Assembly: GCA_046563655.1 (NCBI GenBank)
Contig: CM102284.1
Location: 6,820,001 to 6,884,000, forward strand
Direction: 5' to 3'
From: Yuukianura sp. NJ FZ-2021
Lineage: Eukaryota
DNA: 64,000 bases
Both the position numbers and the translations under genes were made by a program. The notes beneath the pieces were generated by a model, which was given only the letters and a program-made list of their open reading frames with translations, ran no database searches and was not told the origin of the DNA. Of the stretch, positions 3,503-15,913 are shown one piece after another. The stretch's first letter is position 1; every line of letters starts with the position of its first letter.

Positions 3503-6500
3503 ATTCTTTCTCAAGTTTTTCCTCAAATGCAACCAAAACTGTCTCAAAAATGCTGGAAATCCACGAGACATGAGGAGATTTCAGGTAAGAGAAGTGATAA
3601 CAATGAAACTGAAACTGTAGTTCTGCACTTCTTTTCAAGATTTTCAAAATTTAACTTTTCTGAGCACGGTGTTCTACTAATGAAGTTCACTTAAAGTGTT
3701 TGACGTGGTTTGTTTTTGGTTTGAATTAAGTTTTGTGGGCGTCTTGAGGTGCTTAGGAGTAATAAGTGCTTAAGTGCTTTGACACTTGAAGTAAGAACGT
3801 CCACACTTATGCTTCCCCAGCACTTTATGTTCTGCTTCCCTTGTACTTGAAGAATGAGGGTTTAGAGGGTGTGAAAATATTATCCGGATGTGTGAAGATG
3901 TTATTCTAAGGACCAAGTAATTCGATATTTTTTGTATTCAAAACTCAGAACCAGCAGCTTCCCTGTCCATTGTGGCCAACATTTCCTCATCTTCTTCCCT
4001 TTCCGCTTTCCCTGTCCTTGTTCCACTTCATTTTGATAAATTAAGTGCAAATGCAAATGCATCCAATAACTTTCAAAATAAAGTCTCAAAAAGTCTTCAA
4101 CTAGGAAAAAATCAAACGAAAACCGAACATCACATGCTGAAAACTCGTTAAAAAAGTTTTCCCCGATACTCCTACAGTTTCTTTTCTTTCGACTTTTTAA
4201 CTCTACCGAGCACACTTAATTTCCAAGTGTCAAAATTTGCAAAAATTACAAACCAAAATTTGAAGAATTTCGAAATTTTTGTCTTGCTTTGGTTTTAAGA
4301 AGACTGAAAGCAGATGCTTTTGGTCTTGTGTTGAAGTGTGACTTGACTTATGAGTTAAACTGATTGGTGTTAATTGACTAACACCCAAAGTGTTTCTGTC
4401 TTATTCAAACCACATGTGACAAAGGAGGGATTCATGCGGAAATACCATGTACTTCTTCCTCCTAATATATTTTAAGATCTGTAACTTCCTAAGAGGACGT
4501 TGGACATGGGATCCAAAAAGTTGTGGAAGGTAGACTAAGAGTTTACAAAGTTCCTAAAACCAAGGAGTAACACACAATACTCCTGGGAATTTTTGGAAGC
4601 CTTTCAGTTTTCCTTTTCCGGTTTCCCGTCTTCCACTTGTCTCTTACAAGAACAGTTTCTGGAAGGAGTCAAGGGGACATAAAGCTCCTGTGCATCTTCC
4701 AAGCCCTTTTATGACACTTCTCAACAGTCATTAGGATATTATGGCACTCCAACACAAAAAAAGAACAGCCTCAGCCTCAAAATTTTTACTAAACTCACGG
4801 AATTCTGAGCCAAAAAGTTCAAAAACTGCAATAAGTTTCAAATTGGAACTAAAAATATGGATGCATAAAATTTCAGTTAACTTGGGTTACCGTATTTCCA
4901 TGTTTTTTGTGTTCTAAACCTCAAATTAGGATTTTGGCACTAATGTTAAACCTAATTTATGACTAGTGGGTGTCCATTTTTTAGCGAGATTGAATTTAGT
5001 CATCGAAAGAAGCTTTTTTTTCAGAATTTTGAGTAATCTGGTTCTAATAGTTTTTTTAGTACCACCACTGTAGGAAATGTGCTAGTTATGAAAAATGTGA
5101 ACTGGTGGTGGTCCCAGAGGGGTTTAGAAAAATGTTATGACAGTAAATCCGGACGAGAGGACAAGAAAATCCGGACTTAACAAAAAAGAATTGAAGTTTC
5201 AGGAAATCTGACTTGAACAGATGAACAAGTCCCCCTTCACACCATACACAACACGGATTAGACTCAAATTCAATAAGTTTTGTGTAAAATGAAAAACATA
5301 AAGTACAAAAATAACATCTTTCTCTAGGAAAAACGCAACTTGAATTTAAAAAAAAAGTTGTTCACATTTTCTTAAAATTTGACTTTCACAGCAAAATTTG
5401 ACTTAACTTTTTCATAATTTTTTTGTCAATTTAGGTGGTAATTACTCCGCAAGTGAGTGTGGACGGTCCACTGCTTGCAATTTCCGACAACATGTTTGTT
5501 CACAATAATTCAAAACATGGCAGAAGAGCTAAACGACTAGATCCAAACGACGGTAAGTCCAAATTTTTGAAAACTTTTTCAAAAATTCAAAATTTTCAGT
5601 AAAATGGAAAAGCGGAACATTTTTCATTGCTACATTGAGAAGCCACATAAAAAATAATTATTTTCCTCTTTGCTTTGCGGGAATGCGAGATAAGTGACGT
5701 CACAAAGACAGAGTGAGTGACGTCACAAAAAAAGTTGAAAAAAGACGGGAACCTTTTTGATTCGCATAATCCCCGCATAGCATCCGGCCAAAATCGAGGG
5801 TCCACTTTTCGGATAGAAATCTAGCTTTCACCAGGTTCTTTTTTGTGGCGCGGCAGGAAATGTTAATATTTTTAAAATGTTATACTCAAAGATACACAAG
5901 AGATGAAAGTTTAGATTTCAAAAAATCTATTTTTAGTCCATCTTCGTTTCTTCAGATGCATTTTGAGTGTTATTTGTGGAGGTTGTAGGGAAGGGAAAGC
6001 CTTGGCTTTTACAATTAGCTCTCATTGGGAAGTGTTTTGTGGAGTGGTTGAAGCTATGGGAAGAGTGGCTTGCGGGAAGGAAGCTGCTGGTGCCGAAGTG
6101 TTGGAGGAAGCTTAGTGAGACGAACCAGTGGAGTCTGATGGCATTCGCTCAAGTCCCGAGCGGCCATTGTGATTCCCCGAAGAAAAGCGAAAAAGGCGGC
6201 TCCCAAGAGGATTCCGGTACATCGATTTGTCTCCCCTCCAGAACCTCCCGGGAGAAGCAAAAACGCTTTACTGCCTCCTTCTTCAAATAGCATCAAACAG
6301 AACTCAGATCCAACTTTCTCCTTTGGCTTCGTTAACAAAACGGAGAGTGAAACCATTTCAATCCCAACTGAACTGATAGTCATCTGATGAATCAATTAAA
6401 ACTGCCGCGTAAAACCTAATTCATGGCCTAATCTCCTGCTTGTTACAATTAGAAACCAAACTTTCTCTTTTTCTGGAGAAAGTTGCCGCGAAAATGCAAG

Positions 6501-8058
6501 ATTCAGTTGATTCTTCTGCTTTTTTTTGAATTTGTTTGGGAATTGCATTTGAATGGATCTGGATGGTAGCTTGCGGCTTTTCTTGAAGTTGAAGTGCAAG
6601 TCGTTCTGAATCTTTGCTCCCTCGTGTCGTAATGATGAGGTTCCAAAGTGCATTGGGAGAAAGCACAAGGGAAAGTGCGGAGGTTCCTCTGCTGAATGAA
6701 GTCTTGACAAATAATGGGATATTTCAGCGTCTCCCCTCCAAGCTTTCTCCATCTTCAAACCAGTTTTGGGGGAAACCGAAATGCTTTCCACAACTTTCCA
6801 AATACTACACTGAAAAAAACTGAAACCATACTTGGTCAAATGATAATTCAGACCGAGAGTTCGAAGAAAACTTGAATTTGGATTATATTTTTGAATTTTA
6901 TTACAAAATTTGGAATAATTGGAATAATTTTTTCAAATTTTAGGCTATCCGGTCCCTGCAGCTACACCGTGTATCAAAGCGATTTCACCAAGCGAAGGCT
7001 GGACAGCCGGAGGTGCTACAGTGATTATCGTTGGTGACAACTTCTTTGACGGACTCCAAGTCGTGTTTGGTTCTATGCTGGTGTGGTCAGAGGTCAGAGG
7101 TCAACCTGTTTTTGTTGTTTTGAATAATACATTAGCTCCTGCTCAACAATTGCGTGTTTTTCAGTTGATCACAGCCCATGCCATACGAGTCCAAACGCCC
7201 CCTCGCCACATCCCTGGAGTCGTCGAGGTCACACTGTCCTACAAATCCAAACAGTTCTGCAAAGGTGCTCCCGGAAGATTCGTCTATGTTTGTAAGTCAT
7301 GCATCGTCAATTAGTTCCTACCAAGTAGGGGGACACTCACCCCTCTACATGCTGACACGCAATGTCTCAAGTGTAGTTGATTTGACCTTTGACCTTTCCA
7401 CAGCGCTTAGTGAACCTACGATTGACTATGGATTTCAACGTCTCCAGAAACTGATTCCTCGACATCCCGGTGACCCTGAGAAACTCCCGAAAGAAATTAT
7501 ACTGAAGAGAGCAGCAGATTTGGCCGAGGCTTTGTACAGTATGCCCCGAAATAATCAGTTGGGCCTTTCAAGCGGTCGTGCTCAGGGGATGGGGAACAAT
7601 ATGACAGGATTCAATGCCTACACAGGACTAGAGGCTGGGAATTCCCAGTGGAACGACGGTGAGTCACACACGAATTACGTAACACACACAGAAAAAACGA
7701 AAAATCAATTTGGAAAGTTCAAAAAACTGAAAATCTAACCAAAAGCAAAACGATTTTAAAAGTTATTTTAATACCCGGATTTTGATGGTCAGGATTTTTC
7801 TTCTAGAGGATTATGGAACTAGTGCTAGTGGGGGCGGAGGGCGTGGTGGGGCAGTGGTGGCTCCAAGTAATGCTGGTGGACCTGCTCCACCAGCATCGTC
7901 TAATGGCTCTTCCCCAAGGGGTCATAGTGGTGGTGGCTACTCTAATTCTTCAACTCCGCATTCGGCGGGGCCCTACAACGGATCCACTGCTTACATGTCC
8001 ATGTCACCCACATCTCAGGTCACGCCTCCGTCCTCGGCGCTCTTCAACACCGCTTCAC
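3503..8058 (+). CDS. kn: Collier/Knot (COE/EBF) transcription factor, paralogue 1 (5' exons outside window; terminal exon uncertain)
   Basis: GT-AG exons splice in frame: 3503-3584 ([27 protein letters not shown]), 5435-5552 ([37 protein letters not shown]), 6944-7092 and 7165-7291 ([19 protein letters not shown]...[30 protein letters not shown]), 7404-7658 ([45 protein letters not shown]), 7807-8058 (Gly/Ser/Pro-rich). The stop is either at 8075 (intron read-through) or in a short exon such as 8164-8198. Confidence 0.95.
5600..5816. repeat. Dispersed non-coding repeat, copy 2 (right-truncated), in COE1 intron
   Basis: Aligns by eye to 510-723, with TGACGTCA at 5695 and 5718. Similarity ends after GGATAG at about 5816. 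Confidence 0.8.
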
Positions 8059-15200: not shown

Positions 15201-15913
15201 ATACGAATATTTTCTTATGCTAAATTTCGGTTTTACGGAAGAAGTTTTCCGTACTTCGTTTTTGTTTTGAAATTTGTGTTTGCTTACCTGATCTTTTTCA
15301 ATAAATCCCATAAAAATAGTTCGTTCAATTTCTACTGACTGTCCTGCTTTGTCGAAGAGTGCAATTACAAAATGGAAGAAATTCGATTTCCGGAGATTTG
15401 ATGGCGGTTGTTTTTCAAAGTGAGCTCGAATTATTCCAACACTGAAAATAACAAAAGCGTAGTCAAAATTACTAACTTTCCAACAGTAAAACTGACAAAA
15501 TGAAAAATCTAACGCAACAATAGCCAACAATTCTGGAAAACAACAGCTTTTCCTCAACAATTTCGCAATTGAAAGTTGTTCAGTTGTTTGAATTGAAACT
15601 TATGTTAAACACTTACATCCTCCATAGGTTTATCAGGATGGATATGTAAGAAATTTGAAAACTCGAAGAAAATTTAGGTTTAGGAAGAAAAACAATAGTT
15701 AATATCAAAAATCAAAATATTGAAGTTTTTGTTTAAAAATTTCAAAATTAGAAAGTAATTGTTAGTTTACTTGGATTGATCTACGAGCGGAGGTTGCATC
15801 CATGCTCGTTGTGCAAGTTGTGCTGCCAAGGGCTCTTCTTTGAAACTCGGCCCTCTCGGTTGATGATGATGGTGGTGACCGGCGAGTTCTTGGTGAAGTC
15901 CAAACATCATCAT
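9268..15913 (-). CDS. kn: Collier/Knot (COE/EBF) transcription factor, paralogue 2 (terminal exon uncertain, probably within 8800-9000)
   Basis: Ten in-frame exons: 15771-15913 ([31 protein letters not shown]), 15288-15441 ([24 protein letters not shown]), 14951-15014 ([12 protein letters not shown]), 14728-14783 ([14 protein letters not shown]), 13874-14016 (zinc knuckle [14 protein letters not shown]), 11747-11828, 10784-10901, 10003-10151, 9786-9912, 9268-9525 (HLH). Exon lengths 82/118/149/127 equal those of paralogue 1. Confidence 0.95.

Follow-up and report, generated by a model that had tools for sequence, protein, structure and literature searches.

In the 64,000-nucleotide stretch of contig CM102284.1 from the springtail Yuukianura sp. 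NJ FZ-2021 analyzed here (G000:C2:6820001-6884000, hereafter the window), we found two genes of the COE (collier/knot) family facing each other, with gene A on the plus strand and gene B on the minus strand, as seen by six-frame translation and self-comparison. We hold it as nearly certain that the two form a real and retained collier pair. B is very probably tail-less, its predicted protein ending on a short aromatic peptide, and a splicing choice appears to have been turned into a separate gene. The explanation that we consider fairly probable is an old, local and inverted duplication of collier, with an ancestral short isoform fixed as gene B. A previous sequence-only reading of the window had described two converging copies with conserved exon structure; the convergence was confirmed, but the copies are unequal, B having the structure of a tail-less gene for the short isoform only.

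Structure of the two genes

When a DNA-binding-domain exon and an HLH (helix-loop-helix) exon were each used as queries against the genome (98.7 Mb in 22 contigs), the only COE matches were two out of two candidates, both in this locus. Gene A starts 9 kb ahead of the window, where the second DNA-binding-domain match falls, and its exons 1-5 were recovered from the neighboring DNA. The exon lengths of A are 137, 154, 64, 56, 143, 82, 118, 149, 127, 255, 252 and 35 nucleotides (nt), and those of B are 143, 154, 64, 56, 143, 82, 118, 149, 127, 258 and 20 nt. The features of gene A are as follows, in window positions except for the first line.

G000:C2:6811014-6811150, 6812303-6812456, 6813169-6813232, 6813329-6813384 and 6814044-6814186, plus strand, exons 1-5
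3503..3584, plus strand, exon 6, 82 nt, DNA-binding domain, following an intron 5 of 9316 nt
5435..5552, plus strand, exon 7, 118 nt, end of the DNA-binding domain
6944..7092, plus strand, exon 8, 149 nt, IPT/TIG domain
7165..7291, plus strand, exon 9, 127 nt, IPT/TIG domain
7404..7658, plus strand, exon 10, 255 nt, single-H2 HLH and linker, phase-1 donor
7793..7806, plus strand, segment opened by the upstream alternative acceptor, GFFF-stop, predicted short form of 432 aa
7807..8058, plus strand, exon 11, 252 nt, Ser/Gly/Pro-rich low-complexity tail, equivalent of the C-terminal activation domain
8164..8198, plus strand, exon 12, LRSCLWFKHS-stop at the C-terminus as in springtail Collier

Gene B consists of the following parts.

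15771..15913, minus strand, exon 1, 143 nt from the ATG
15288..15441, minus strand, exon 2, 154 nt, PF16422
14951..15014, minus strand, exon 3, 64 nt
14728..14783, minus strand, exon 4, 56 nt
13874..14016, minus strand, exon 5, 143 nt, zinc knuckle, PF16422
11747..11828, minus strand, exon 6, 82 nt
10784..10901, minus strand, exon 7, 118 nt
10003..10151, minus strand, exon 8, 149 nt
9786..9912, minus strand, exon 9, 127 nt
9268..9525, minus strand, exon 10, 258 nt, HLH, PF16423
8977..8996, minus strand, terminal coding segment, GAAVFF-stop, predicted protein of 437 aa, acceptor 271 nt past the HLH exon
8717..8778, minus strand, block of the 3' untranslated region (UTR), 87% identical to 1048-1115 of locus L007
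8667..8672, minus strand, AATAAA poly(A) signal, with an AATAAA also at the matching place in L007

All introns are bordered by GT..AG (11 of 11 in A, 10 of 10 in B), and both frames are open. The identical internal exon lengths pointed out earlier (82, 118, 149 and 127 nt) were found again, and exons 2-5 (154, 64, 56 and 143 nt) are equal too. This conservation does not extend to the 3' end, where B lacks the two tail exons of A. The introns, previously called unalignable, are not wholly so, a 38-nt intron-5 element (87%) being common to A and B; outside the introns, the two genes also share 98 nt ahead of the ATG at 73%. The 3' ends of the two genes almost touch, with an ATTAAA on the plus strand at 8595 and an AATAAA on the minus strand at 8672 (window 8590-8780), and a later plus-strand signal at 9038 would make the A and B transcripts overlap.

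The predicted proteins were scored domain by domain as members of the COE family, together with a Pfam search. B exons 2 and 5 scored above the cut-off for the COE DNA-binding domain (PF16422); three motifs of this domain are identical in A and B, and the H-X3-C-X2-C-X5-C zinc knuckle is intact in both, with one D/E difference. The IPT/TIG domain (PF01833) was found on A exons 8-9, across which B is 95-96% identical, and the COE HLH (PF16423) on B exon 10, with a 42-aa HLH stretch identical in A. No helix is repeated in either copy, in line with the single-H2 HLH reported for both. The C-terminal Ser/Pro/Thr-rich activation domain of COE proteins is carried by A, in a tail of 95 aa (21 S, 16 G and 11 P) that aligns with the tails of three springtails and whose exon has one match genome-wide. 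B lacks this domain and fits the class of tail-less isoforms, not that of full-length COE proteins. The long form of A is predicted to have 523 aa. The acceptor for its short form lies 14 nt upstream of the tail exon, and the TAG stop of the GFFF segment provides the AG of the tail-exon acceptor, a layout also seen in loci L008 and L015.

The ending of gene B

No convincing second tail for B was found by tblastn with three springtail tails in 104 kb, or with the tail exon genome-wide. Likewise, no tail-exon remnant was recognized in the 3' UTR of B, and only weak matches were obtained between this region and the 3' ends of L008 and L015. The short ending itself is preserved in L007, a B-type locus in which 84 of 85 exon 10 residues are equal to those of B, with bases only 83% identical. 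In L007 the HLH exon is likewise followed by GAAVFF-stop, in which five bases differ from B, four of them at third positions and one in a swap of stop codons. All five are silent, while only 15 of the 60 possible single changes would be (rough p 0.001, ignoring mutation bias). A third B-type fragment, P0181, has a frame that continues to GVFF-stop, apparently by intron read-through into the B-type terminal exon.

A second in-phase acceptor of B at 8936 speaks against a tail-less protein. It opens a frame of 41 aa that ends in five His and closes ahead of the poly(A) signal, and a short part of this region is similar to L007. Through this exon, or through an unrecognized one, B could have obtained a different tail and been neofunctionalized by tail replacement. 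At the matching place, however, L007 has TAA instead of AG, leaving the matching frame unreachable in phase, and every codon of the GAAVFF exon is conserved. The His-ending exon was rejected because L007 lacks its acceptor, and tail replacement as such seems very improbable to us.

Age, selection and phylogeny

A and B have identical residues at 370 of 427 aligned codons. As claimed before, synonymous differences are many (pS 0.727, i.e. saturated, with a Jukes-Cantor dS of ~2.6), and the dN/dS comparison that had been proposed for the paralogues gave a dN of 0.079 against saturated silent sites. Each copy is also constrained relative to its own relative: over ~144 codons, B and L007 show a dS of 1.11 and a dN of 0.009, while A and the A-type locus L009 show saturated dS and a dN of 0.028. 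These values support the proposal that the duplication is old and that purifying selection has maintained both copies. Saturation at silent sites excludes an uncollapsed haplotype, and the existence of A-type and B-type relatives in other animals' DNA settles the doubt about mis-assembly. That the pair should be an assembly artefact, an uncollapsed haplotype or a decaying pseudogene is hardly credible and already largely refuted, given these saturated sites, the intact splice sites and frames, and the strongly constrained orthologue that each copy has in independent DNA.

For comparison with other springtails we used the Folsomia (XP_021963610.2 and XP_035715127.1), Orchesella (CAL8093513.1) and Allacma (CAG7815353.1) collier proteins, which are the closest full-length relatives. 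Measured against these three genera, B has 28 derived residues and A has 12 (p 0.011); another 16 positions differ in both copies, and 6 are common to the two. The PRSP motif after the HLH is absent in A (7560-7590, plus strand), B (9330-9370, minus strand), L007, L009 and P0181, and is kept in 23 of 23 proteins of alignment A1. We take this motif to be a possible proline-directed phosphorylation site that was lost in this lineage.

Both copies fell inside the springtail clade, with support of 100/99 (422 columns, 18 proteins). In this full-length tree A and B were joined at 76/1, and a tree joining A to the other springtails was not rejected (approximately unbiased test, p 0.344). With 144 IPT/HLH columns and 18 rows, A-types were grouped at 96/93, B-types at 97/89, and A-types with B-types at 92/94 (not starred). 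The idea of a lineage-specific duplicate is thus favored by the shorter alignment, which covers more taxa, and not by the full-length one, and the duplication is not private to this animal, as other species share it. Judged from these trees, it is older than several species splits and probably confined to one springtail lineage, but it may also have an older origin followed by losses.

The short aromatic ending in other animals

In a metagenome scan 77 loci were kept, with taxon labels that are a reading of sequence likeness, and 29 of them had a recognizable donor after the HLH linker. With the short ending scored as G, zero to three residues and an aromatic residue, it was present in 19 of these 29 testable arthropod-like loci, compared with 3 of 9630 random AGs in their own DNA. 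The dual acceptor is the same in the single-type springtail genes L008 and L015, and was also found in the marine crustacean-like loci L021, L028 and L039-41 and, as GFFL, in the insect-like loci L046, L048-50 and L052. Two loci (L013 and L014) have the short ending without an intron and four (L016, L017, L018 and L077) close it by TGA or TAA, which shows that more than the translation of a polypyrimidine tract is involved. No tail motif was seen downstream of the short ending in these six loci (331-6108 nt examined). Other lineages may, by the look of such loci, have short-only COE genes.

Among 170 fetched proteins longer than 250 aa, seven have the short ending, distributed over Folsomia, three beetles, two decapods and one unnamed cluster, and including Folsomia X3, Cylas X2, Onthophagus X6, Hypothenemus, Penaeus and Petrolisthes. 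It was also found in 6 of 12 further cluster members. Folsomia isoform X3, with 436 aa, ends in GFFF like the short form of A; an AlphaFold2 model of the Folsomia short isoform from a 23-row alignment was unusable (mean pLDDT 29). Long and short isoforms are both annotated in Folsomia, Cylas and Hypothenemus. An ancestral gene making both forms is supported by the dual acceptors together with these annotations, and the short form appears to be old and ancestral in the single-copy relatives.

Alternatively, the ancestral short form could be a product of nonsense-mediated decay, its FFF a translated polypyrimidine tract, and B a truncated duplicate with a new role. In A, L008, L015 and others the following acceptor does take its AG from the stop, with an intron further downstream, and such an arrangement could trigger decay. 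Nevertheless, the aromatic ending is retained in loci without an overlapping downstream acceptor (L013, L014, L016-18, L077 and L007), and uninterrupted full-length short and long frames were found on contigs of 1.5-2.4 kb in one cluster (P0125 and P0301-P0303), which suggests spliced mRNA of both forms. We therefore consider a mere decay product improbable.

Non-coding elements

Three conserved elements were identified in and around the genes.

6136..6237, plus strand, conserved element in intron 7 of A, 102 nt, 98% identical to L009, 84% to L008 and 87% to L015
12982..13039, minus strand, intron-5 element of B, whose 38-nt core (13002-13039) corresponds to G000:C2:6815799-6815836 in A at 87%
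16127..16219, minus strand, element upstream of the B ATG, sharing 73% identity over 98 nt with the region ahead of the A ATG (L003 272-368)

The intron-7 element has no match in B and a single match genome-wide. It is probably an ancestral enhancer kept only by A, and it is not a known RNA, as a search of window 1-20000 against Rfam gave no matches. The intron-5 element has two one-mismatch COE-like sites in or beside each copy. Such sites, with at most one mismatch, number 13 in 27 kb (0.48 per kb), compared with 0.26 per kb in the flanks. Drosophila col is described as autoregulated, binding CCCnnGGGA (PMC4512700), and an autoregulatory role of the intron-5 element is a weak possibility. 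The element upstream of the ATG is probably a remnant of a shared promoter or 5' UTR. A dispersed short repeat, resembling a miniature inverted-repeat transposable element, occurs at window 460-729, 5575-5822 and 25630-25819 with 76-88% identity between copies; copies sit in introns 5 and 7 of A, and a similar stretch was seen by eye at about L003 8700-8930.

A proposed route from isoform to gene

In their sequence, the single-copy relatives have a pair of 3' splice acceptors past the HLH exon, separated by 14 nt; one yields the long, tailed protein and the other the tail-less GFFF form. A has retained both acceptors, the Ser/Gly/Pro tail and the intron-7 element, while B has neither the tail exons nor this element, evolved faster and ends in the selected GAAVFF peptide. 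We propose that B still folds, dimerizes with A through the identical HLH and binds the same palindromic sites. Lacking a tail, it would act only at sites already open or shared with other factors, and when co-expressed with the long form of A it would dilute the tail-dependent chromatin opening of the latter. The long-to-short ratio would then have been shifted from the choice of splice site to the enhancers of a second gene. Reports on EBF1 and its relatives agree with parts of this: EBF1 is reported to require its C-terminal domain to recruit BRG1 and to bind isolated sites, though not to bind where other factors share the site (PMC10903943), and COE proteins are stated to homo- and heterodimerize via the HLH (PMC4312928). 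By this analogy, the role proposed for B is slightly favored.

Ordinary regulatory subfunctionalization or dosage is the strongest competing account, though an unlikely one. The copies would have split expression domains with B working as a normal Collier, and the tail would have been lost either by a duplication that broke just past the short acceptor or through being dispensable in the cells of B. Consistent with this, B is without the intron-7 element common to A and the single-copy genes, tail-less EBF is reported to still activate transcription (PMC4312928), short endings without a downstream tail motif occur at other loci (in L018 across 6.1 kb), and the second spider paralogue is described as having a small expression domain of its own (PMC7128011). 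This account leaves unexplained the selection acting on B's final six residues and the wide conservation of the aromatic ending. As a route of origin, subfunctionalization is compatible with the fixation of the short isoform as a gene.

Several points weigh against that fixation, or against the role given to B. All splice forms of A and B are predicted, from sequence alone. A retains the short acceptor in its sequence and is thus not confined to one form, which makes the partition one-sided and gives the short form a second source besides B. As tail-less EBF still activates, an attenuating role of B is not a given, and since the tail is described as poorly conserved among COE proteins (PMC4312928), carrying the function of the EBF1 tail over to a springtail is an extrapolation. 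The 19 loci with the short ending contain near-copies (L016/17, L039-41 and L046-52). Four loci (L055, L067, L071 and L075) have a tail yet no short ending, and six have neither, five of the six with less than 1.3 kb downstream. Finally, L007 and L009 are short contigs that have an assembly prefix in common and a high GC3 (0.61 and 0.76, respectively), which does not in itself make them one species or place them side by side.

Tentatively, a broader picture can be drawn, in which an old collier splice switch of insects, springtails and crustaceans, apparently not yet described, yields a tail-less factor with a functional aromatic tip, and one springtail lineage made this isoform an independently regulated gene. 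That the tip is a docking motif for a partner or a degron is a guess.

Neighboring genes and other COE models

Downstream on the plus strand are three long tandem frames (18290-19480, 19960-20913 and 21552-22499). They encode 316-397 aa, and all three contain an EB module (PF01683) and start with what resembles a signal peptide. A phosphorylase-family exon (PF01048) is located at 45709-46089 on the minus strand, and a gene with an ANC1 homology domain (PF17793), which we presume to be AF9/ENL-like, at 49092-50947 on the plus strand. Two minus-strand frames of 685 and 241 aa (22720-24774 and 41225-41947, respectively) had no Pfam match at E 0.001.

The fetched chelicerate proteins were checked for paralogue groups, their models being fragmentary. 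The collier models P0152 and P0164, from two Centruroides species, differ beyond what is expected of congeners, also at the N-terminus; they are possibly two scorpion paralogues, and one model looks faulty. Of the models P0001 and P0002, the one from Homalodisca repeats its HLH-to-tail segment and the 718-aa one from Mytilus scores as if repeating, both probably being annotation or assembly artefacts.

Significance and comparison with known systems

If the proposed reading is true, a tail-less COE protein is a natural and selected product, and the final residues of the short isoform are of importance at the protein level. Work on EBF1 links pioneer activity to the C-terminal tail, so far via engineered deletions, and the pair would offer a natural experiment parting tail-dependent (pioneer-like) from tail-independent COE activity. 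The short collier isoforms standing unremarked in beetle, decapod and Folsomia annotations would become a testable regulatory switch. The A/B arrangement is moreover a rare genomic marker of possible use in resolving how the springtail orders are related. We found no published account of springtail collier duplicates or of the GFFF isoform, subscription papers and supplements being outside the search, and the main text of the Holacanthella genome paper (PMC5644144) had no matches for collier, knot, COE or EBF.

COE genes are described as single-copy outside vertebrates in PMC2394523, PMC3117877, PMC4512700 and PMC3053236, and collier as neurally expressed in PMC10848406. The sequence-only reading had likewise called the gene normally single-copy. 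This agrees with statements in the first three of these papers but not with the spider Parasteatoda tepidariorum, which has two invertebrate COE paralogues, the second expressed in a domain apart (PMC7128011); duplication of the gene in an invertebrate is therefore not new in itself. The spider copies are on separate scaffolds and are discussed in connection with whole-genome duplication (PMC5535294), whereas the present pair is local, inverted and unequal, and tail loss is not mentioned in the available parts of either spider paper.

Compared with arthropod collier/knot in general, the domain order is the same, i.e. DNA-binding domain, IPT and single-H2 HLH. A also agrees with springtail collier in its tail and LRSCLWFKH ending, but neither A nor B has the PRSP linker motif. 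Only one collier type was found in searches of Folsomia, Orchesella and Allacma (genomes not searched directly), in contrast to the two genes here, of which B is short-only. An ancestral splice alternative that becomes a separate paralogue is known from reports of isoform separation after duplication (PMC4494069; fungal SKI7/HBS1, PMC3597508). The present case differs in being one-sided, in resting on a dual acceptor that removes an activation tail and not on mutually exclusive exons, and in concerning a low-copy developmental transcription factor. A further parallel is the engineered EBF1 without its C-terminal domain (PMC10903943), in which the DNA-binding and dimerization domains are likewise intact and the low-complexity tail is absent; B, by contrast, appears to be a natural and selected version, with an aromatic C-terminal peptide of its own.

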